From positions 1-8,554 of the IMG/VR virus record IMGVR_UViG_2609459863_000010: a stretch of 8,554 bases of DNA; one strand, written 5' to 3'. Under the pieces are notes generated by a model that saw nothing but the letters and a program-made list of their open reading frames with translations, was not told the DNA's origin and made no database searches. Positions 1 through 8,519 of the stretch are shown here, piece by piece; the stretch's first letter is position 1, and the number at the start of each line of letters is the position of its first letter. The DNA comes from a virus (taxonomy: Duplodnaviria > Heunggongvirae > Uroviricota > Caudoviricetes). The translations under genes and the position numbers were made by a program.

Positions 1-97
1 GAACATCACCAGTCCTGCAAATCCGCGCGAGACGCAGCCGCATTTCTTCGAATCCCGATTCCCTGAGCTGTTAAAGCTGCTCGATACCGTTCATTGA
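1..97 (+). CDS. 3' end of an upstream phage ORF (partial; frame unresolved)
   Basis: Frame 2 is open from the window edge to TGA 95-97 (...FPELLKLLDTVH*), with its stop overlapping the GAGG ribosome-binding site of the next gene. Frame 3 is also open, to TAA 72-74, so the frame cannot be fixed from this fragment. Confidence 0.3.
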   Translation, partial: NITSPANPRETQPHFFESRFPELLKLLDTVH

Positions 98-98
98 G

Positions 99-1094
99 GT
101 GACCGTGAGAGCACTACTGACCCCTGAAATTGCCCCGCGTATGGGGATCGTATTGTTCAGACCAGGTTCAGAGCTGATGCCCCTGTTTATGCAGGGGCGT
201 GTCCTGCTGGAGCCTGAGCCGGAGCGTTATTCATCTTTCGCCAGTGGTGCCGTTCCGGCGGCATCACAACCGCTGGCGGATGATCCTGCCGTTCGGGCCG
301 TGTTCCGCAATGAGGCAGTGATCCGTCGTGCTGGTGGCGTGGAATGTCTTGAAAGCTGGTTACTTCGTGAAAAAGGCTGCCAGTGGCCTCATTCCGACTG
401 GCACAGCGAGAACATGACCACAATGCGACACGCTCCGGGTGCAATCCGTCTGTGCTGGCACTGCGATAATCAGCTGCGCGATCAGTTCACGGAACGGCTG
501 GAATCAATGGCAACGGATAACTGTGCCCGCTGGGTGTTGTCTGTTGTGCGTCGGGATCTCGGTTTTGATGACAGTCACGTTGTGACAATGCCGGAACTGT
601 GCTGGTGGCTGATTCGTAATGATCTGGCGGATGCCTTACCGGAAAGTGCAGCCCGTAAGGCCCTGAGATTACCGAAGCCTGTTGTGCCGTCTGTCACCCG
701 GGAAAGTGACCTTGTGCCTTCGGTTACTGCCACCAGCATCATCCAGGATAAGGCGAAAAAGGTGCTGGCGCTGAAAGTGGATCCGGAGTCGCCGGAGTCT
801 TTTATGTTACGCCCAAAACGTCGTCGCTGGGTTAATGAAAAGTACACGCGCTGGGTTAAGACGCATCCGTGTGCATGTTGTGGTAAGCCAGCCGACGATC
901 CTCATCACCTGATTGGTCATGGTCAGGGTGGAATGGGTACAAAAGCGCATGACCTTTTTGTGTTGCCTTTGTGCAGAAAACACCATGACGAACTGCATGC
1001 GGATACCGTGGCATTTGAAGAGAAGTATGGTTCCCAACTGGAGCTGATATTTCGTTTTATCGATCGTGCGCTGGCAATTGGCGTGCTGGCCTGA
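99..1094 (+). CDS. DUF968-family phage protein (YdfU-like) with a C-terminal Cys/His cluster, possibly an HNH-like zinc-binding nuclease fold
   Basis: 331-codon ORF; GTG at 99 or, more plausibly, GTG at 105 with GAGG at 96-99. C-terminal motif HPCACCGKP...DPHHLIGHG...PLCRKHHDELH matches my recollection of DUF968 proteins found just upstream of Q in lambdoid prophages. The stop at 1092-1094 lies just before the RBS of the next gene. Confidence 0.8.
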   Translation: MTVRALLTPEIAPRMGIVLFRPGSELMPLFMQGRVLLEPEPERYSSFASGAVPAASQPLADDPAVRAVFRNEAVIRRAGGVECLESWLLREKGCQWPHSDWHSENMTTMRHAPGAIRLCWHCDNQLRDQFTERLESMATDNCARWVLSVVRRDLGFDDSHVVTMPELCWWLIRNDLADALPESAARKALRLPKPVVPSVTRESDLVPSVTATSIIQDKAKKVLALKVDPESPESFMLRPKRRRWVNEKYTRWVKTHPCACCGKPADDPHHLIGHGQGGMGTKAHDLFVLPLCRKHHDELHADTVAFEEKYGSQLELIFRFIDRALAIGVLA

Positions 1095-1111
1095 TTTTGT
1101 GGAGAAAGTTG

Positions 1112-1474
1112 ATGCGTGATATTCAAATGGTTCTGGATCGTTGGGGAGCATGGGCGGCGAGTGATAGTTCAGGAGTAGACTATTCTCCTATAGCTGCTGG
1201 GTTTAAAGGGCTTCTTCCCTATACAAGCAAAACACGTCAGGCTTGTTCAGATAGTGATGCATTAATTATTGAAGGTTGTCTTGCTCTTCTTAAAAAGCGA
1301 AAACCGTACGAGCATTCTTTGATTGTGGCCCATTACCTGTATGGCATCTCGAAAAGAAAGCTTGCAAGAGCTCGCAAAAAAGATGAGAAATTGATACGTA
1401 TAGAGATACAGATGGCTGAAGGGTTTATTGATGGATGCCTTTCAATGCTGGATGTTAAACTTGAAATGGAGTAG
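1112..1474 (+). CDS. Q: Late-gene antitermination protein Q (QuuD / Phage_antitermQ type)
   Basis: N-terminus MRDIQMVLDRWGAWAA... closely matches the recalled QuuD-type Q N-terminus (MRDIQMVLERWGAWAA...). ATG at 1112 is preceded by GGAGAAAG at 1101-1108. The ORF track starts at TTG 1097, which I consider less likely. Stop TAG 1472-1474. Confidence 0.88.
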   Translation: MRDIQMVLDRWGAWAASDSSGVDYSPIAAGFKGLLPYTSKTRQACSDSDALIIEGCLALLKKRKPYEHSLIVAHYLYGISKRKLARARKKDEKLIRIEIQMAEGFIDGCLSMLDVKLEME

Positions 1475-1499
1475 AAAAAAGGGCATTTCTGCCCTTTTT
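1475..1499. terminator. Bidirectional intrinsic terminator shared by Q (+) and the convergent membrane-protein gene (-)
   Basis: AAAAAA, then GGGCA-TTTC-TGCCC hairpin, then TTTTT. The A-run/hairpin/T-run reads as a terminator on both strands. The stop of the minus-strand gene (1498-1500) overlaps the T-run. Confidence 0.7.
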
Positions 1500-1941
1500 A
1501 AATGTGGGGGAGTATCCAGTTTACTTTTCTCCATGTAAAGGCAAAAGTTATTACTGAAATGATAAGAAGAGATAAAGATTCGATAATTAAAATAAATTCT
1601 ATTTTTTCTCCATGTAACAATGTCTTTTCATTGGCAAACATTGCTATCAAAGCAATAACGCATGCCGTAATTAAAGATGCACCTGCGGTTAATAGATTTA
1701 CAATAATAACTTGAAGTATGTTGTTGTTTTTTAATGCTTTTATTATTCCATTTGAGTTTTCGCTAGCAGCACTAAAAATTGATATTGTGGCTAAAATAAA
1801 ACCAAATAAAATACCGGATACAGTTGAAATAACCCCGGAGGCTGTAAGTATGTCAGCATGCCCCATCTGAGGGATATACCTCAGTAGGAACAAGGTGCAA
1901 AAAACACTTACAATCAGGTTTCTTAAGTATTTCAATAACAT
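1498..1941 (-). CDS. RexB-like small integral membrane protein (about 4 predicted TM helices); putative membrane effector of an abortive-infection pair
   Basis: 147 aa, strongly hydrophobic with about four helical segments. Same size class as lambda RexB (144 aa). The LFLLRYIPQMG segment resembles the recalled lambda RexB LLFRHYIPG. ATG at 1941 lies 3 nt after the upstream gene's stop (1945-1947), indicating translational coupling. AT-rich. Confidence 0.72.
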   Translation of the reverse strand: MLLKYLRNLIVSVFCTLFLLRYIPQMGHADILTASGVISTVSGILFGFILATISIFSAASENSNGIIKALKNNNILQVIIVNLLTAGASLITACVIALIAMFANEKTLLHGEKIEFILIIESLSLLIISVITFAFTWRKVNWILPHI

Positions 1942-1944
1942 ATC

Positions 1945-2886
1945 CTATACCTTCTTTTTGCTGATATCGTATTGCTTAAGGTATTCATTGTTATCAATTT
2001 TAGCAGAAATCATGGCTTGCAGAACATCACTATCAGTGCCATAACCATTAACGGTATATATGTTTTTTTCTGAAATGAGTACCTGATCAAGAAGACTTTG
2101 TTCAACGGTATTTTTGGGCTGTGTTACTGCCGCTTTTTTTACAATTCCCGGCATTTTTTCAAGGAGTTCTTTAATACCATCCTTAACGAGATCTGATAAA
2201 TAACCTTTGACTTTTACTCTCCCTGATGCACGTCCCCTTAGATTTAACTTGAGACGTGTTCCACCCAGCCCTACCATCATATTTACCAGTTCCTTAGAAA
2301 ATGAACTATTTAGCTGGTAATTTGTTGCATCAAAGTTCCTGGGAGCAGCCAGGACAATATCACAACTTCTCAAAGTACTTCCTGTTTCAAGTAGCTCTTT
2401 GACGCTCTCTTTTTTCCAGATGGCTTGGAATGAAAAGTTATTTCCAGGATTACCACTCTGGCTGTAAAGCAGATAAGCTAAATCCGATTCTTTCGGCCCA
2501 AGATGATTTTGAGTTAATATTAAAATATCACTATCGTAATAATATAAAAAATAGGTTCTTTCGACTATGTATTTTTTATCATCTAGTGGTATGTTGTGCT
2601 CATTCCAGTGTTCATCACCAATATAAGGAAGGAGATACTCTTCTCGTGAGCATGACATGTAGCCGAAGAAATATTTAGCTTTTGTATCTTTATTTATAAA
2701 AGCTATTTTTAACTTTTTATTTCTATAGATGGTATCAAAATGATTATTCGTAACGGTTACGCAAGTATTATACAGATTTTCAATTGCTTGCTTAGCAACT
2801 GAATGGCTGCGGATAGTCCCAGAACTGCTGGTGTAAAAACCAATTTTAAGTTTTTTTTGTTTCTTTGATTGCGCAATAGTAGCCAT
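1945..2886 (-). CDS. RexA-like cytoplasmic protein; putative sensor/activator partner of the downstream membrane protein
   Basis: 313 aa, no TM segments. Local resemblance to recalled lambda RexA: KIGFYTSSS vs KNGFYATYRS near the N-terminus, GPKESDLAYLL vs GPTTSDLTDFL mid-protein, CDIVLAAPRNF vs LDIVIKPKFK. AAGG lies 7 nt upstream of ATG 2886 on the minus strand. AT-rich relative to flanks. Confidence 0.75.
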   Translation of the reverse strand: MATIAQSKKQKKLKIGFYTSSSGTIRSHSVAKQAIENLYNTCVTVTNNHFDTIYRNKKLKIAFINKDTKAKYFFGYMSCSREEYLLPYIGDEHWNEHNIPLDDKKYIVERTYFLYYYDSDILILTQNHLGPKESDLAYLLYSQSGNPGNNFSFQAIWKKESVKELLETGSTLRSCDIVLAAPRNFDATNYQLNSSFSKELVNMMVGLGGTRLKLNLRGRASGRVKVKGYLSDLVKDGIKELLEKMPGIVKKAAVTQPKNTVEQSLLDQVLISEKNIYTVNGYGTDSDVLQAMISAKIDNNEYLKQYDISKKKV

Positions 2887-3019
2887 GTTAAACCTTAGTA
2901 TACTAATAATTTCTTATGGATCTTATTTTTTATATGGCTTTAATTTAGCAAAAAAAATTACCGCGGTCCGCAAATTTTATCTTAATCTGTTAAGAGTGGT
3001 TACTTCGCCACACAACTTA

Positions 3020-3043
3020 AACCCGCCACTGAGCGGGTTTTTT
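3020..3043 (+). terminator. Intrinsic terminator on the + strand in the divergent intergenic region (candidate tR'-like site)
   Basis: AACCCGC-CACTGA-GCGGGTT hairpin followed by TTTTTT. The T-run is on the + strand only, so it terminates a rightward transcript that would start in 2890-3010. Confidence 0.55.
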
Positions 3044-3141
3044 GTACCTGTAAACTTGGTGCAGTACAGTAAACACGCTGGTGGTCGTGAATACTGACTT
3101 TTTATCTTGCTGGCTTTTTAGACAAGAGTTATTGGTATGTC

Positions 3142-3363
3142 ATGTTAACCAGAAGGGAAAAAGACATGCTAAAACAGCAAGATATGACCGAAACCGCCAG
3201 AGTGGTGTTTAATGAATTGAGCGTCACCGAACCGGCGACTGTCGGGGAAATTGCGCAGAATACTTACCTTTCACGTGAACGCTGCCAGTTAATACTGACT
3301 CAGCTTGTTATGGCGGGTCTGGCAGATTATCAGTTCGGTTGTTACAGACGCCTTCAGCCCTGA
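3142..3363 (+). CDS. Small winged-helix/HTH DNA-binding protein (FaeA/PapI-like fold suspected)
   Basis: 73-codon ORF. The more likely start is ATG 3166, preceded by AGAAGGGAAA (65 aa). The pattern ...TVGEIAQNTYLSRERCQLILTQLVMAGLADY... is typical of a recognition helix plus wing. Its stop overlaps a terminator hairpin. Confidence 0.55.
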   Translation: MLTRREKDMLKQQDMTETARVVFNELSVTEPATVGEIAQNTYLSRERCQLILTQLVMAGLADYQFGCYRRLQP

Positions 3364-3377
3364 AGGCTTTTTTATTT
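3350..3377 (+). terminator. Intrinsic terminator overlapping the stop codon of the small HTH gene
   Basis: GCCTTCA-GCCC-TGAAGGC, a perfect 7-bp stem, followed by TTTTTTATTT. Confidence 0.7.
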
Positions 3378-3513
3378 GTGGTAATGGGCGGCTGGTGGGT
3401 GTTAGCGGCACCTGCCAGCCATCTGCTCATGCGTTGGGGTCACAAGCAAACCTCAGGCCCATCTGCTTTGCGCAAAAGCAGAATGAGCCTATCAGAGACA
3501 GGCTTAATGATCC

Positions 3514-4572
3514 ATGCTTAATACTGTAAAAATATCCAGTTGTGAGTTAATCAACGCCGACTGCCTGGAATTTATCCGGTCGTTACCCGAAAATTCTGTT
3601 GACCTGATAGTCACGGACCCGCCGTACTTTAAAGTGAAGCCCGAGGGCTGGGATAACCAGTGGAAGGGCGACGATGATTACCTGAAGTGGCTGGACCAGT
3701 GTCTGGCGCAGTTCTGGCGGGTGCTGAAACCTGCCGGAAGTCTTTACCTGTTCTGTGGTCATCGCCTGGCATCTGATATCGAAATCATGATGCGTGAACG
3801 CTTCAGTGTGCTGAACCATATTATCTGGGCGAAGCCGTCCGGACGCTGGAACGGATGCAACAAGGAAAGCCTGCGGGCGTATTTCCCCGCCACAGAGCGC
3901 ATTCTGTTCGCGGAACATTATCAGGGGCCGTATCGTCCGAAAGATGCCGGGTATGAGGCGAAGGGCAGGGCACTGAAACAGCATGTGATGGCCCCGCTGA
4001 TTGCTTACTTTCGTGATGCGCGCGCTGCCCTGGGGATAACGGCAAAACAGATTGCAGATGCCACAGGAAAGAAAAACATGGTGCCGCACTGGTTCAGTGC
4101 CAGTCAGTGGCAGCTACCGAACGAAAGCGATTATCTGAAATTACAGTCGCTGTTTGCCCGGGTGGCAGAAGAGAAACATCAGCGCGGGGAACTGGAAAAG
4201 CCACACCACCAGCTGGTCAGCACATACAGTGAGCTGAACCGGCAGTATATGGAACTGCTGAGTGAATATAAAAATTTGCGGCGGTATTTCGGTGTGACGG
4301 TGCAGGTGCCGTACACCGATGTGTGGACGTATAAACCGGTGCAGTACTATCCAGGGAAACATCCGTGCGAAAAACCGGCAGAAATGCTGCAGCAGATAAT
4401 CAGCGCAAGTAGTCGTCCTGGTGATCTGGTTGCGGATTTCTTCATGGGGTCGGGTTCGACAGTCAAAGCCGCGATGGCGCTGGGGCGTCGTGCTACAGGC
4501 GTTGAGCTGGAGACTGAACGTTTTGAGCAGACGGTCAGGGAAGTTCAGGATTTAGCCAGTCAGAACGGATGA
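3514..4572 (+). CDS. Beta-class DNA methyltransferase (N6-adenine or N4-cytosine; N6_N4_Mtase family), apparently orphan
   Basis: 352 aa. Motif IV DPPY (IVTDPPYF) is near the N-terminus and motif I FxGxG (DFFMGSGST) near the C-terminus, the circularly permuted order that defines beta-class amino-methyltransferases. About 200 aa between them would form the target-recognition region. No restriction endonuclease gene is adjacent. Confidence 0.88.
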   Translation: MLNTVKISSCELINADCLEFIRSLPENSVDLIVTDPPYFKVKPEGWDNQWKGDDDYLKWLDQCLAQFWRVLKPAGSLYLFCGHRLASDIEIMMRERFSVLNHIIWAKPSGRWNGCNKESLRAYFPATERILFAEHYQGPYRPKDAGYEAKGRALKQHVMAPLIAYFRDARAALGITAKQIADATGKKNMVPHWFSASQWQLPNESDYLKLQSLFARVAEEKHQRGELEKPHHQLVSTYSELNRQYMELLSEYKNLRRYFGVTVQVPYTDVWTYKPVQYYPGKHPCEKPAEMLQQIISASSRPGDLVADFFMGSGSTVKAAMALGRRATGVELETERFEQTVREVQDLASQNG

Positions 4573-4612
4573 TATTGCAGGATTAGTTACGTACCGTTAT
4601 TATCCTGCGCCC

Positions 4613-4688
4613 GGCCCTTTAGCTCAGTGGTGAGAGCGAGCGACTCATAATCGCCAGGTCGCTGGTTCAAATCCAGCAAGGGCCACCA
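4613..4688 (+). tRNA. tRNA-Ile2 (anticodon CAU, lysidine-type, reads AUA); would be scored as tRNA-Met by anticodon alone
   Basis: 76 nt. Acceptor GGCCCTT/AAGGGCC, D-arm GCTC...GAGC, anticodon loop CTCATAA with CAT at 4646-4648, T-arm GCTGG-TTCAAAT-CCAGC, discriminator A, encoded CCA. Resembles E. coli ileX/ileY and the ileZ of Stx phages. Confidence 0.9.
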
Positions 4689-4695
4689 TCACATA

Positions 4696-4772
4696 CCGCC
4701 ATTAGCTCATCAGGAAAGAGCGCCAGCCTTCGAAGCTGGTTGCGCGGGGTTCGAGTCCTCGATGGCGGTCCA
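4696..4772 (+). tRNA. tRNA-Arg (anticodon UCG)
   Basis: 77 nt. Acceptor CCGCCAT/ATGGCGG, anticodon stem CCAGC/GCTGG with loop CTTCGAA (TCG at positions 34-36), T-loop TTCGAGT, encoded CCA. Confidence 0.88.
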
Positions 4773-4785
4773 TTATCGGTATTCT

Positions 4786-4862
4786 GCGTTGTTAGCTCAG
4801 CCGGACAGAGCAATTGCCTTCTAAGTAATCGGTCACTGGTTCGAATCCAGTACAACGCGCCA
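4786..4862 (+). tRNA. tRNA-Arg (anticodon UCU, reads AGA/AGG)
   Basis: 77 nt. Acceptor GCGTTGT/ACAACGC, anticodon loop CTTCTAA (TCT at 34-36), T-arm GGTTCGAATCC, discriminator G, encoded CCA. Confidence 0.88.
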
Positions 4863-4875
4863 CACTTATTTTCCT

Positions 4876-4902
4876 GGCTCGCTTCGGCGGGCCTTTTAAT
4901 TT
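4876..4902 (+). terminator. Intrinsic terminator closing the tRNA cluster
   Basis: GGCTCGC-TTCG-GCGGGCC, a 7-bp stem with one G-U pair and a UUCG tetraloop, followed by TTTTAATTT. Confidence 0.7.
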
Positions 4903-5168
4903 GCTGAAAAAGAAAACATCAGATGGTTAGTCGGGTATCAGTTATCTGGTGAAATTTTTAAATACCTCACAATTCAGGAAGGTGATTATTGTTTTTCTGG
5001 TGGGGAATTTGTTAAAAATCACTCCGCATGATGAATCCCCCTAAGCGGTGGGGCGACTGGCAAGGCTCCATTACGATGGTCACAATCCGCAGATTTAGTT
5101 TGCCAGGCTGAATCTACCGGGAGGCACCCGGCATCATGCATAATGTGGAAAATTGGAAATGTATTCAG

Positions 5169-5200
5169 GCCTCTACGAATTTTAGTAGAGGCTTTTTTTT
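5169..5200 (+). terminator. Intrinsic terminator of module A
   Basis: GCCTCTAC-GAATTTTA-GTAGAGGC, a perfect 8-bp stem, followed by TTTTTTTT. Confidence 0.75.
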
Positions 5201-5204
5201 GAGT

Positions 5205-5231: not shown

Positions 5232-5582
5232 AAGTATGCATGAGAATACATTTTTTATTATTTGCCTGAAAATAGTACCCTGAGGTTATTGTTGTTTTCA
5301 ACAGGCTGATTTGTGTTCTGATCGGGGATGTGACAAGGAACATACGTTCTTATGTGAAAATGTTAAATTCTTCACATTTCAGTGAGTTGAGTGTTGATTT
5401 CGTTTTATCTTTTTTGTTAAAAAAGTATTGCATGGTGAATCCCCCTGTGCGGTGGGACGACTGGTGACAACAATTCATCATCCGTGATGACCCAGAAGAG
5501 ATCGCGGGTTCAGTGGCACCGGGCTGAACTCACCGGGAGGCACCCGGCACCATGTTCATGGTGATACAGAAATGCGGCTTCA

Positions 5583-5606
5583 GCCCCTCTCCGGAGGGGC
5601 TTTCTT
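5583..5606 (+). terminator. Intrinsic terminator of module B
   Basis: GCCCCTC-TCCG-GAGGGGC, a perfect 7-bp GC-rich stem, followed by TTTCTT. Confidence 0.65.
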
Positions 5607-5612
5607 ATGGAC

Positions 5613-5707: not shown

Positions 5708-5731
5708 TCTGCGCAACTGCGCGGCCTTTTT
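5708..5731 (+). terminator. Intrinsic terminator-like hairpin upstream of the esterase gene
   Basis: CTGCGC-AACT-GCGCGG, a 6-bp stem with one G-U pair, then CC and TTTTT. Confidence 0.45.
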
Positions 5732-5833: not shown

Positions 5834-7813
5834 ATGACATTTAAACACTACGATGTGGTCAGGGCGGCGTCGCCGTCAGACCTTGCGGAGCGACTGACAC
5901 AAAAACTGAAGGAGGGGTGGCAGCCATTTGGCAGCCCTGTCGCCATCACGCCTTATACCCTGATGCAGGCCATTGCGGCGGAAGGTGATGTCACCACACC
6001 TGTGGTGGTGAAGCCGTCGGATGGAGAAGGCACAGTTATCAGCACCACCAGCGAACCGGAGTATTACTTTGTTGTTGTTCTGGCGGGGCAGTCAAACTCA
6101 ATGTCTTTTGGGGAAGGGCTGCCGCTGCCGGAGACATATGACCGTCCGGACCCGCGTATTAAACAGCTGGCGCGTCGCAGTACGGTGACGCCGGGTGGTG
6201 CCGCCTGTAAATATAACGACATCATTCCGGCAGACCACTGTCTGCATGATGTGCAGGATATGAGTAACCTGAATCATCCTCATGCAGACCTGAGTAAGGG
6301 ACAGTACGGTTGTGTGGGGCATGCTCTGCATGTTGCCAAAAAGCTGCTGCCGTTTATGCCTGCGAATGCGGGTATCCTTCTTGTTCCATGTGGCCGTGGC
6401 GATTCGGGATTTACTGCGGGGGCCGAGGGGGCGTTTAACGAAGCGTCGGGAGCGACCGCAGGCTCGTCCCTGTGGGGGGCGGATAAACCGCTGTATCATG
6501 ACCTGGTCAGCAGAACCCGTGCGGCCCTGAAGAAAAATCCGAAGAACGTGCTGTTATCAGTGATCTGGATGCAGGGAGAAAAAGATGTCAGTTCGGGGAG
6601 ACATGCAGAACACAATGCGCTTTTCCTTGCCATGGTAAATCAGTTCCGTACGGAACTGGCAGATGTGGCAGAGCAGTGTACTGGCGGGACAACGGCCAGC
6701 GTCCCGTGGATTTGCGGTGATACCACGTACTACTGGAAGGAAAGGTATGCAGCGCCGTATGAGGCGGTTTACGGTGGGTATAAAGGCAAAGCTGCGCAGA
6801 ATATTCACTTTGTGCCGTTGATGACGGATGAGCATGGTGTGAATGTGCCGACAAACGAGCCGTCAGAAGATCCGGACATTATCCCGGCGGGATACTATGG
6901 CGCTGCGTCACGCACTGCCAGTAACTGGACGTCAGCCAATCGTAAAACGCACTTCAGTTCATGGGCGCGAAGAGGCCTTGTTTCAGACCGTCTGGCAGGT
7001 GCCATTTTGCAGTACGCCGGGCGGACATTATCGTTCCTTACCGGGCAGAGCGCACCGCTGTCGGGTGGTACAACTCCTGTCAGTCCGGGGACACCGGATG
7101 TTGAGAAACCGCAGGATGGCGGTGTTGCTGGTACTGGTCATGATGAGGCCGTGAGCAGTACCAGGACGGTGGCTGAATATGATGCGAACAGTGGAAATGG
7201 TGTATGGACAGAGCAGCAGTGGGGGGCTGCCGGTGGCAAAGGCACTGTGACTGATGACGGTGGACGGAAAGCGCTGCGACTGGAAAAACAGCCCGGTAAA
7301 CTGACGTCCTGGAAAATGTTCCGTACTGTTGCAGTGGAGGAGGCAAAAAATCTTCTCAGCAAGGGGGGTGAAATTGCCGTACGGTTCAAAATTCCGGATG
7401 GAAGCGAACTGGTGAACGGACAGTTTGTCTTTGGTCTCTACTGGCCGGTGTCGCAGTGGGCGTCAGGCGCGGCAGCAAACAGTATGCTGGCATCATTCTT
7501 CCTTCAGACGGATGCATCAAATCTGAATCTTATGCACCACAAGGGCACGTCGAATGCACAACTGGGCACATTTGGTGCGTTTGACCATAACTGGCATACG
7601 GTTGTTTTCCGCTTTGCGGGAAATAACAGCGAAAGAGTCGTTCCGGTGATTGATGGTGCAGAGCAGACGGCGTTTGACCTTGTGATGTGGACAAATGATG
7701 GCTTTACAGCAGATACGCTGACGCTGACAGATATCACGGGGGCAAAAGCGACGTATCCTGTACTGCTTGATACGGTCACTGTCAAAGTGAAAGAAAGCGA
7801 AGCAGCGGCATAA
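5834..7813 (+). CDS. nanS: Prophage sialate O-acetylesterase (NanS-p type): N-terminal DUF1737, SASA/SGNH-like esterase core, C-terminal extension
   Basis: 659 aa. N-terminus MTFKHYDVVRAASPSDLAE... matches the recalled NanS-p/DUF1737 start. The catalytic-serine block VVLAGQSNSMS is the GQSN motif of SASA esterases. RBS GGGAGGA at 5824-5830. In Stx phages this gene sits immediately downstream of stxB. Confidence 0.9.
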   Translation: MTFKHYDVVRAASPSDLAERLTQKLKEGWQPFGSPVAITPYTLMQAIAAEGDVTTPVVVKPSDGEGTVISTTSEPEYYFVVVLAGQSNSMSFGEGLPLPETYDRPDPRIKQLARRSTVTPGGAACKYNDIIPADHCLHDVQDMSNLNHPHADLSKGQYGCVGHALHVAKKLLPFMPANAGILLVPCGRGDSGFTAGAEGAFNEASGATAGSSLWGADKPLYHDLVSRTRAALKKNPKNVLLSVIWMQGEKDVSSGRHAEHNALFLAMVNQFRTELADVAEQCTGGTTASVPWICGDTTYYWKERYAAPYEAVYGGYKGKAAQNIHFVPLMTDEHGVNVPTNEPSEDPDIIPAGYYGAASRTASNWTSANRKTHFSSWARRGLVSDRLAGAILQYAGRTLSFLTGQSAPLSGGTTPVSPGTPDVEKPQDGGVAGTGHDEAVSSTRTVAEYDANSGNGVWTEQQWGAAGGKGTVTDDGGRKALRLEKQPGKLTSWKMFRTVAVEEAKNLLSKGGEIAVRFKIPDGSELVNGQFVFGLYWPVSQWASGAAANSMLASFFLQTDASNLNLMHHKGTSNAQLGTFGAFDHNWHTVVFRFAGNNSERVVPVIDGAEQTAFDLVMWTNDGFTADTLTLTDITGAKATYPVLLDTVTVKVKESEAAA

Positions 7814-8471: not shown

Positions 8472-8481
8472 CGGCGGGGCA

Positions 8482-8519
8482 GGGCCATCAGTAAAGAGCT
8501 GGTGGCCCTTTTGTTGTTG
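8482..8519 (+). terminator. Intrinsic terminator
   Basis: GGGCCATCAG-TAAAGAG-CTGGTGGCCC, a 10-bp stem with one G-U pair, followed by TTTTGTTGTTG. Confidence 0.75.

Follow-up and report, generated by a model that had tools for sequence, protein, structure and literature searches.

Lambda Q and Q933W adjoin their promoters. In the stretch of DNA analyzed here, 8,554 nucleotides of the IMG/VR virus record IMGVR_UViG_2609459863_000010 (hereafter the window), a gene for a Q antiterminator is instead followed by a hairpin and two genes on the opposite strand. Where, then, does the late promoter PR' of this Q lie, and what has come between the two? The window represents the late-regulatory region of a lambdoid Escherichia coli prophage that resembles Stx phages but has no stx, and the closest phage record is that of the cdt-converting phage cdtI, with 99% identity across window positions 900-3198. 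We consider it highly probable that a normal lambdoid late switch (Q, PR', a Q-loading site and the leader terminator tR') is split here by a self-contained antisense cargo cassette of 1,475 bp (approximately 1471-2949). Since Q acts in trans, its separation from PR' would be immaterial.

Relatives without the cassette join Q to a conserved block

The product of the Q gene belongs to a recognized Q family, as expected for a lambdoid late cassette, through its match to PF06530 (Table 1). It also matches PHROG 79, 'anti-termination protein Q-like', is 49% identical to QuuD of E. coli K-12, and gives a weak match to the Q21 structures 6P18 and 6JNX (E 0.0018). An alternative start at the ATG at 1112 is possible and is the one annotated in phage cdtI.

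The original prediction held that Q is immediately followed by a bidirectional terminator that also ends the convergent membrane-protein gene, that the next 1.4 kb or so is antisense coding, that PR' and its Q-utilization site (qut) lie elsewhere, and that the antisense module was inserted between Q and its target promoter. Our comparisons confirm the observed layout and support the interpretation. A hairpin that folds on both strands begins directly after the Q stop codon, the stop codon of the membrane-protein gene sits in its T-run, and two minus-strand open reading frames (ORFs) span 1498-2886. The antisense stretch has a G+C content of 30-36% (overall 0.34), compared to 50-57% in the flanks. 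The phage record Stx2_EH2201 (L001) shares its Q type with the window; there, the alignment of window positions 84-1470 ends immediately short of the Q stop codon, and that of 2950-4897 begins at the last base of this codon. Two viral contigs, L016 and L084, have the same insert-free junction, and the locus is about 1.45 kb shorter in many Stx2 phages with the same Q type. Because relatives without the insert fuse the Q stop codon to the homologue of 2950, the interval of approximately 1471-2949 is an insertion. The late promoter thus follows Q immediately in L001, L016 and L084, whereas 1,475 bp of antisense cargo intervene in the window. With the insert came another stop codon for Q, as well as the hairpin and the two genes with the region upstream of them. 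The exact module is present in 25 of 5,426 complete E. coli genomes, of which 1,406 have the flanks, and it is also carried by cdtI.

In the three empty-site relatives, Q has a short C-terminal extension (DDWLLKK in L001) with codons that overlap the promoter A-tract, which places the left recombination junction within the last codons of Q.

The DNA that lies past the cassette is conserved and promoter-like. We fetched 80 viral contigs encoding close relatives of the window Q and scanned them for a homologue of 2950-3050. This block was found 680-2210 bp past the Q stop codon in 75 contigs and abutted Q in L016 and L084, as it does in Stx2_EH2201; it was not found in two contigs, which end too early, and a further one escaped detection with the initial threshold. 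Alignment to the promoter regions of phages with the same Q type, a check that the original prediction had proposed, placed the edge of the block precisely: across 23 cargo contexts, similarity begins exactly at window position 2950, in an A-tract. Conserved in this alignment are, in order, A-rich sequence, an invariant CGCGGTCCGCA, ten variable bases, TAnnnT, an invariant TG-TAAGAGTGGT, ACTTCGCCACACA-CTTAAAC and a terminator.

The block contains a probable late promoter and its terminator

The first place for a rightward late promoter had been given as 2890-3010, a range that can be narrowed to 2950-2995. A TAnnnT or CAGTAT hexamer lies at or within a few bases of the -10 position in all 23 contexts, its middle bases varying.

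The start site was located by homology to DLP12, the K-12 prophage with the same layout as the window: quuD, hairpins, the antisense porin gene nmpC, ...TACGTACGTAAAAAATTGGTTATGCTGTTAAGAGTGGTTACTTCG...terminator, and essD. DLP12 shares the TGTTAAGAGTGGTTAC-plus-terminator block and has a dyad at the same distance from a mapped start; it differs from the window in its cargo, its dyad (TACGTACGTA), its Q and its status as a defective prophage. Q-type control of the DLP12 lysis cassette is reported in a passage of PMC7918800 that cites Rueggeberg 2013. A Cappable-seq table for strain MG1655 lists a plus-strand start at U00096.2 position 576452, with a relative score of 1.7 (PMC4782308). This position corresponds to NC_000913.3 577229 (offset +777) and to position 4730 of the DLP12 locus (L086), the bracketed A of TTAAG[A]GTGG. 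It lies 7 nucleotides after the hexamer TATGCT, and its equivalent in the window is A2995, 7 nucleotides after TAATCT. As a check on the offset, a neighboring strong start falls 7 nucleotides after a TATTAT hexamer. The essD coordinates in U00096.2 also agree with the offset. Neither the SMRT-Cappable-seq nor the Term-seq data for K-12 list anything at this position of the DLP12 block.

The same DLP12 locus has a strong Cappable-seq start (relative score 90) at L086 position 4359, or U00096.2 576081, on the plus strand just upstream of the nmpC start codon. Directed away from nmpC and toward the late block, it is much stronger than the one within the block.

Other candidate elements in and around the block were set aside. 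An alternative -10, TATCTT (2978-2983), has phage-21-like spacing to TAAGAG, but it is not conserved in relatives and misfits the DLP12 start. If TGtTAAGAG served as an extended -10, transcription would begin near 3003, in disagreement with the Cappable-seq start. A minus-strand terminator call at 2973-2961 was rejected for lack of a fold (-3 kcal/mol, z-score +0.35).

Transcription from A2995 to about 3044 would yield a leader RNA of about 50 nucleotides, at the low end of the 50-130 nucleotides predicted for a short PR'-to-tR'-like RNA. Lambda 6S RNA, by comparison, has 194 nucleotides. The StxS RNA of Stx phages has 258 (PMC7547250). In lysogens of lambda and the Stx phages, transcription from a constitutive late promoter ends a short way downstream to give such a short RNA, and Q permits passage through many terminators (PMC7547250). 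Lambda Q belongs to a different protein family from the window Q. No Rfam family was found over the PR'-to-tR' RNA. A candidate hairpin at the 5' end of the leader (+2 to +17, GUGGU...GCCAC) was predicted by folding and rejected, with 152 of 500 shuffles reaching the observed covariation score and a single compensatory change. On the minus strand, there is a sub-threshold match to STnc130 at 3011-3147 (30 bits versus a gathering score of 55; E 0.005), which uses the tR' hairpin in reverse as its terminator. This match may be due to chance or may reflect an antisense RNA overlapping tR'.

The hairpin predicted as a plus-strand terminator at 3020-3043 (ACCCGC-CACTGA-GCGGGT followed by T6) folds well (Table 1). 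SfV and Ayreon have the same hairpin, annotated as a terminator, after a late promoter of the phage 82 type (TTGCAT, 17 bp, TAAGAT). Among 54 unique relatives, 41 have a strict terminator hairpin ending 88-105 nucleotides into the block, compared to 76 of 3,000 random windows from the same loci, and the stems are of several kinds (CCCGCC/GGCGGG, CCTCGC/GCGGGG, CCCTGCC/GGCGGGG and CCCGT/ACGGG). In cdtI (L002) and several other relatives, the 3' arm has GCGG instead of GCGGG at the equivalent of 3033-3038; this shortens the stem, so tR' is possibly leakier there. In Ayreon (L004), a plus-strand lipoprotein-like gene downstream of the 82-type PR' is flanked by two copies of the tR' hairpin (3057-3100 and 3736-3774), suggesting a second cargo site made by recombination at the terminator.

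Further downstream, late transcription was predicted to cross at least six terminators. We found four convincing ones after tR' (3350-3367, 4876-4893, 5167-5194 and 8481-8509); six are reached only by counting tR' itself and the marginal plus-strand sites at 5582-5601 (poor U tail) and 5709-5724 (z-score -1.3).

A dyad in the block co-varies with the Q subtype

Upstream of the -10 hexamer, the dyad GCGGTCCGC is invariant across the 23 contexts, and the CGCGGTCCGCA that contains it is unique within the window. With additional loci gathered using a QuuD query and the exact pattern TGTTAAGAGTGGTTAC, the set comprised 247 in which a PF06530 Q precedes the block. Their Q proteins form six clusters at 72% identity or above, each with its own 10-mer at -32 to -23: TACGTACGTA for the QuuD-type cluster (108 of 115 loci), GCGGTCCGCA for the window-type cluster (97 of 106), (C/T)GCGTACGCA for cluster 2 (19 of 19), TGTTATAACA for cluster 3 (5 of 5), and GCGGGCCGCA and TGGAATTCCA for clusters 4 and 5, with one locus each. 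All six 10-mers are dyads of the form T-(G/A)-N3-(N)-N3-(C/T)-A, and the sequence from the -10 onward is common to all six clusters. In the two clusters whose dyads are related (GCGGTCCGC and GCGGGCCGC), Q also has a similar basic segment in its C-terminal half. Since the dyad changes with the Q subtype, it is likely to be the Q-binding element, and it may be bound by symmetric Q dimers.

Just downstream of the -10, TGTTAAGAGTGGT is near-invariant in 51 unique sequences and contains a candidate sigma-dependent pause element, AAGAGT. Read as AAGNNT, this element keeps its second A and its final T in every sequence, whereas its middle bases change (AAGAGT, AAGGCT, AAGAAT and AAGGGT), which is the pattern expected for a -10-like element. 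The corresponding motifs are AACGATGGG in lambda and phage 82, also followed by GG, and TAAGCTG in phage 21. We tentatively regard AAGAGT as the pause element on the basis of this conservation; its role is uncertain because it lies closer to the -10 than in lambda or phage 21.

Phage 21 has one of the known late cassettes closest to this arrangement. Its Q is in the same Pfam family, though only distantly related (E 0.0018), and both cassettes have a Q-specific element, a candidate one in the window, upstream of the -10, a -10-like element with TAAG at the transcript start, a terminator right after it and an RNA of about 50 nucleotides, predicted in the window. The phage 21 record annotates a -35, a Q-binding element (QBE) in the spacer, a -10, the start, the pause element TAAGCTG and a terminator, all within 90 bp of the Q stop codon. 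PR'21 begins 7 bp past that codon, whereas the window PR' is 1,475 bp away, and PR'21 has a consensus -35, whereas the window promoter does not. The phage 21 pause element occupies +2 to +8, while the candidate in the window overlaps the start. Q21 binds two tandem direct repeats (10.1101/651190; PMC9388147), ATTGAGCA and AATGAGCA, which span -27 to -12. No such pair of tandem direct 8-bp repeats was found in the spacer of the window promoter; the conserved element is instead a dyad of 9-11 bp further upstream, at -32 to -24. A direct-repeat QBE is a property of phage 21, and need not be one of every member of the Pfam family.

The interval between Q and PR' is a slot for variable, mostly antisense cargo

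Across the gathered loci, 184 unique Q-to-block sequences comprised 11 empty sites and 173 with cargo, the latter falling into 37 types of 585-3002 bp. The longest cargo ORF was antisense to Q in 165 and sense in 8; the exceptions, with ORFs of 187-253 amino acids, are L199, L200, L213, L253, L256, L265, L268 and L287. From these sequences, the interval from the Q stop codon to the PR' A-tract is a general cargo slot in this branch of Q.

The slot has the conserved flanks and many alternative cargoes, in 37 clusters, of a defense hotspot. Other cargoes matched KAP_NTPase, NYN, TIR_2 and SDH_protease in Pfam, and PDC-S20 (E 3.5e-176), TIR-TM (E 1.7e-57), PDC-S42 and PDC-M68A/HNH in PADLOC. As raw counts, 4 strong and 1 marginal PADLOC matches were obtained for 10 other cargo proteins, and 4 had Pfam domains typical of defense. 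The cassette in the window also resembles a moron: it is present or absent between genes that are adjacent in relatives, its base composition differs from that of the flanks, and its terminator has a convincing fold, while its own promoter is a pattern match, TGcTAAATT, only. From this candidate promoter, the antisense transcript would be expected to start near 2935, about 49 nucleotides upstream of the ATG at 2886.

That terminator is the two-way hairpin at 1475-1499. Its fold energy is -13.0 kcal/mol for the plus strand (z-score -2.9) and -13.4 kcal/mol for the minus strand (z-score -4.3), with tails of U5 and U6, respectively. The consensus terminator scanner did not call it, because the A and T runs were absorbed into the stem. 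The hairpin would end the antisense operon and would halt transcripts leaving Q that are not antiterminated. In the first set of loci, a hairpin of -13 kcal/mol or stronger lay within 65 nucleotides of the Q stop codon in 19 of 20 cargo types, compared to 20% of random windows. Its sequence is distinct in each of the 20 types, and it is missing from the empty-site relatives. As the hairpin varies with the cargo and is absent from empty sites, it is carried by the cargo and is not part of Q.

Morons in HK97 and HK022 and the hotspots of P2 and P4 (PMC9122126) likewise have fixed flanks and swappable, low-G+C cargo with its own promoter and terminator, often defense-like. Unlike these, the slot described here lies between a regulator and its cis target, and its cargo is strand-biased. 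Literature searches, limited in reach, found no description of a hotspot at the Q/PR' junction and nothing relevant on DUF6731, the family of the larger cargo protein in the window. The overall arrangement, a moron between Q and PR', is known, with DLP12 and its nmpC an old example. New leads are how general the slot is and how strand-biased its cargo, the dyad that changes along with Q, and a RexA-like fold for DUF6731.

The cassette in the window resembles lambda RexAB

The 313-amino-acid product of the first cassette gene (1945-2886) matches only DUF6731 and a PHROG of unknown function, and the 147-amino-acid product of the second (1498-1941) has no match of known function (PHROG 8552, function unknown). 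To look for similarity at the level of structure, the DUF6731 protein was modeled with AlphaFold2 from 22 homologues (predicted local distance difference test, pLDDT, 80.7; predicted template modeling score, pTM, 0.77). A Foldseek search of the PDB with this model returned lambda RexA (8TWQ) first, with an E value of 4.5e-7, followed by RdgC. The structure model and fold searches thus place a RexA fold in the soluble component of the cassette. Its partner, encoded adjacent and downstream as in RexAB, is a predicted four-helix membrane protein whose Kyte-Doolittle hydrophobic segments (1-20, 31-61, 74-105 and 112-137) are placed as in the 144-amino-acid RexB. A single BLASTP comparison with RexB gave weak N-terminal similarity (E 0.012).

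Both systems are therefore two-gene operons in which a soluble protein of about 300 amino acids with a RexA/RdgC fold precedes a four-helix membrane protein of about 145 amino acids, in the order rexA then rexB; both are borne by lambdoid prophages and are placed for expression in the lysogen. They differ in that lambda Rex adjoins cI and uses PRM, while the window cassette lies between Q and PR' with its own candidate promoter. The pair also occurs together in a non-phage Vibrio context, and other E. coli prophages carry it, at 44% identity, again in convergent orientation to a PF06530 Q.

Several results speak against assigning the pair to the Rex family. The Foldseek TM-scores were only 0.35-0.39, and an hhalign comparison with RexA was not significant. 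Neither protein matched the Pfam families RexA (PF15969) or RexB (PF15968), even at E<=5, where lambda RexA and RexB score 1e-97 and 8.5e-92, and neither matched any PADLOC model. Given the likeness in fold, gene order and partner and the missing Pfam match, we describe the cassette as Rex-like in architecture and fold only, and not as a demonstrated member of the Rex family. It is most likely a phage-exclusion (abortive-infection) pair expressed from the prophage.

Other features of the window

Downstream of the leader terminator, the window continues with a small TrmB-like ORF, a DNA methylase gene, tRNA genes and two tandem STnc100 small RNAs ahead of an esterase gene (Table 1). Similarity to cdtI, mEp460, Ayreon and Stx2c phages ends at about 3198, inside the TrmB-like ORF, marking a recombination boundary within a gene. 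Each STnc100 copy ends at a terminator, and the pair occupies the position that stx has in related Stx phages, in the interval from the tRNAs to the esterase. Between the second copy and the esterase there is also a strong minus-strand terminator-like hairpin at 5640-5619 (GCCCGCG...CGCGGGC, then T6), with no obvious minus-strand gene for it to end.

Table 1. Features of the 8,554-nucleotide window, with position, strand and basis of assignment.
Feature	Position	Strand	Basis or remark
DUF968/HNH gene	99-1094		
Antiterminator Q gene (Q21/Q933W family, QuuD-like branch)	1097-1474	+	PF06530, E 5.2e-52, above curated cut-off
Q stop codon TAG	1472-1474	+	
Two-way intrinsic-terminator hairpin (A6, GGGCA, loop TTTC, TGCCC, T5)	1475-1499	both	
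Membrane-protein ORF, 147 amino acids	1498-1941	-	
DUF6731 ORF, 313 amino acids	1945-2886	-	
Candidate antisense-operon promoter, extended -10 TGcTAAATT	2942-2950	-	Pattern search only
A-tract, UP-element-like (-45 to -38)	2950-2957	+	Left edge of block conserved across all cargo contexts
CGCGGTCCGCA with dyad GCGG-T-CCGC (about -32 to -24), candidate Q-binding element	2962-2972	+	Invariant in the window Q subtype
PR' -10 hexamer TAATCT	2983-2988	+	Homology; 7 nucleotides before mapped start of DLP12 homologue
Near-invariant TGTTAAGAGTGGT with candidate sigma-dependent pause element AAGAGT (2992-2997), then GG	2988-3000	+	
Inferred transcription start A, +/-1	2995	+	Homology to DLP12 Cappable-seq start
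tR', terminator of short late leader RNA	3020-3049	+	-13.7 kcal/mol, z-score -3.7
Small TrmB-like ORF	3142-3363		
First terminator past tR', after small TrmB-like ORF	3350-3373	+	-10.5 kcal/mol, tail T6
N6/N4 DNA methylase	3514-4572		
tRNA Met, Arg, Arg	4613-4862		
Terminator after tRNA cluster	4876-4902	+	-13.6 kcal/mol
STnc100 small-RNA copies, two in tandem	4996-5204, 5400-5612	+	Rfam 140 and 122 bits, gathering score 47
Terminator, 3' end of first STnc100 copy	5167-5202	+	-18.4 kcal/mol, z-score -5.2, tail T8
NanS-p-like esterase	5834-7813		
DUF1378 and DUF826 ORFs	beyond esterase		
Strong terminator after DUF826 ORF	8481-8519	+	about -22 kcal/mol

Discussion

We propose that the split switch would still work as a lambdoid late switch. 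From its homology to the mapped DLP12 start, polymerase would initiate constitutively at about A2995, using the -10 TAATCT and the upstream A-tract, and without Q it would stop at tR' and release an RNA of about 50 nucleotides. When Q is present, polymerase would be held at the -10-like AAGAGT-GG overlapping the start, where a Q dimer bound to the dyad GCGGTCCGC would probably load onto it. Polymerase modified in this way could then pass tR' and the later terminators, transcribing the TrmB-like gene, the methylase gene, the tRNA genes, both STnc100 copies and the esterase gene before reaching the lysis genes.

Four observations count against this proposal. The DLP12 start has a weak signal (relative score 1.7) and comes from a different Q subtype (49% identity). 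No convincing -35 hexamer was found, the best candidate being TTACCG with a 19-bp spacer. The co-variation of dyad and Q is correlative and covers six lineages. Finally, the pause candidate overlaps the start (-3 to +3) and lies 9 nucleotides after the -10, compared to 12-13 in lambda and phage 21.

We weighed the split switch against three other readings of the locus. If the late promoter lay inside the 3' end of Q, the hairpin at 1475-1499 would be the true tR', and Q-modified polymerase would read through the cassette in antisense. The hairpin does have a U5 tail on the plus strand and sits where lambda has its PR' region, but there is no plus-strand promoter-like site in 1300-1475, and a hairpin whose sequence follows the cargo type and is missing from empty sites belongs to the cargo. 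With the conserved promoter-plus-terminator block and the mapped DLP12 start both on the far side of the cargo, we regard this reading as extremely improbable. It is also very unlikely that 2950-3049 is only a constitutive small-RNA gene or a relic and that the Q-responsive promoter lies further downstream, for example near the tRNAs past the methylase or ahead of the esterase gene. PR'-to-tR' RNAs such as StxS can themselves be regulatory, Stx phages have an additional tRNA promoter between tR' and stx (PMC7547250), and several terminators lie downstream of the block. The block nonetheless abuts the Q stop codon in empty-site relatives, like PR' in phage 21, and its dyad changes in step with the Q subtype, a feature for which a small-RNA gene alone would have no need; one block could in any case have both roles.

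The arrangement could also be without regulatory meaning if the prophage is cryptic and decaying and Q has ceased to function with its target. The window is only part of a prophage and has no stx or other obvious payload, and the DLP12 example is defective. Against this, the same module is found at 99% identity in cdtI, an inducible phage, the window retains an intact Q, dyad, -10, invariant block and tR', and layouts with cargo dominate the 184 unique viral-contig sequences. Decay therefore seems to us very unlikely, and the split switch remains the reading we prefer.

Taken together, these results raise a broader possibility for the QuuD-like branch of PF06530. It would have a dedicated, mostly antisense defense slot between the Q stop codon and the PR' A-tract; its Q would read a dyad, with the half-sites (T-G/A-N-N-N) setting subtype specificity, unlike the direct-repeat mode of Q21; and DUF6731 with its four-helix partner would form an unrecognized, widespread RexAB-like exclusion family. 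We put this combined proposal forward tentatively, as plausible but somewhat short of probable. If it is true, convergent placement would let antiterminated early transcription leaving Q silence the cargo upon induction.

For annotation, PR' should not be assumed to lie beside Q in this large group of E. coli prophages, which includes Stx2-converting phages and the cdt phage, and the late promoter can be placed here to within a few bases. The six natural pairs of Q and site bear on how proteins of the Q21 family read DNA. A slot with fixed flanks and 37 types of cargo offers a simple route to new candidate defense systems, and DUF6731 gains its first functional lead as a RexA-like protein. In related phages, stx is driven by the promoter that lies just downstream of the cargo, so recombination in the slot could carry the late regions of toxin phages from one Q type to another.

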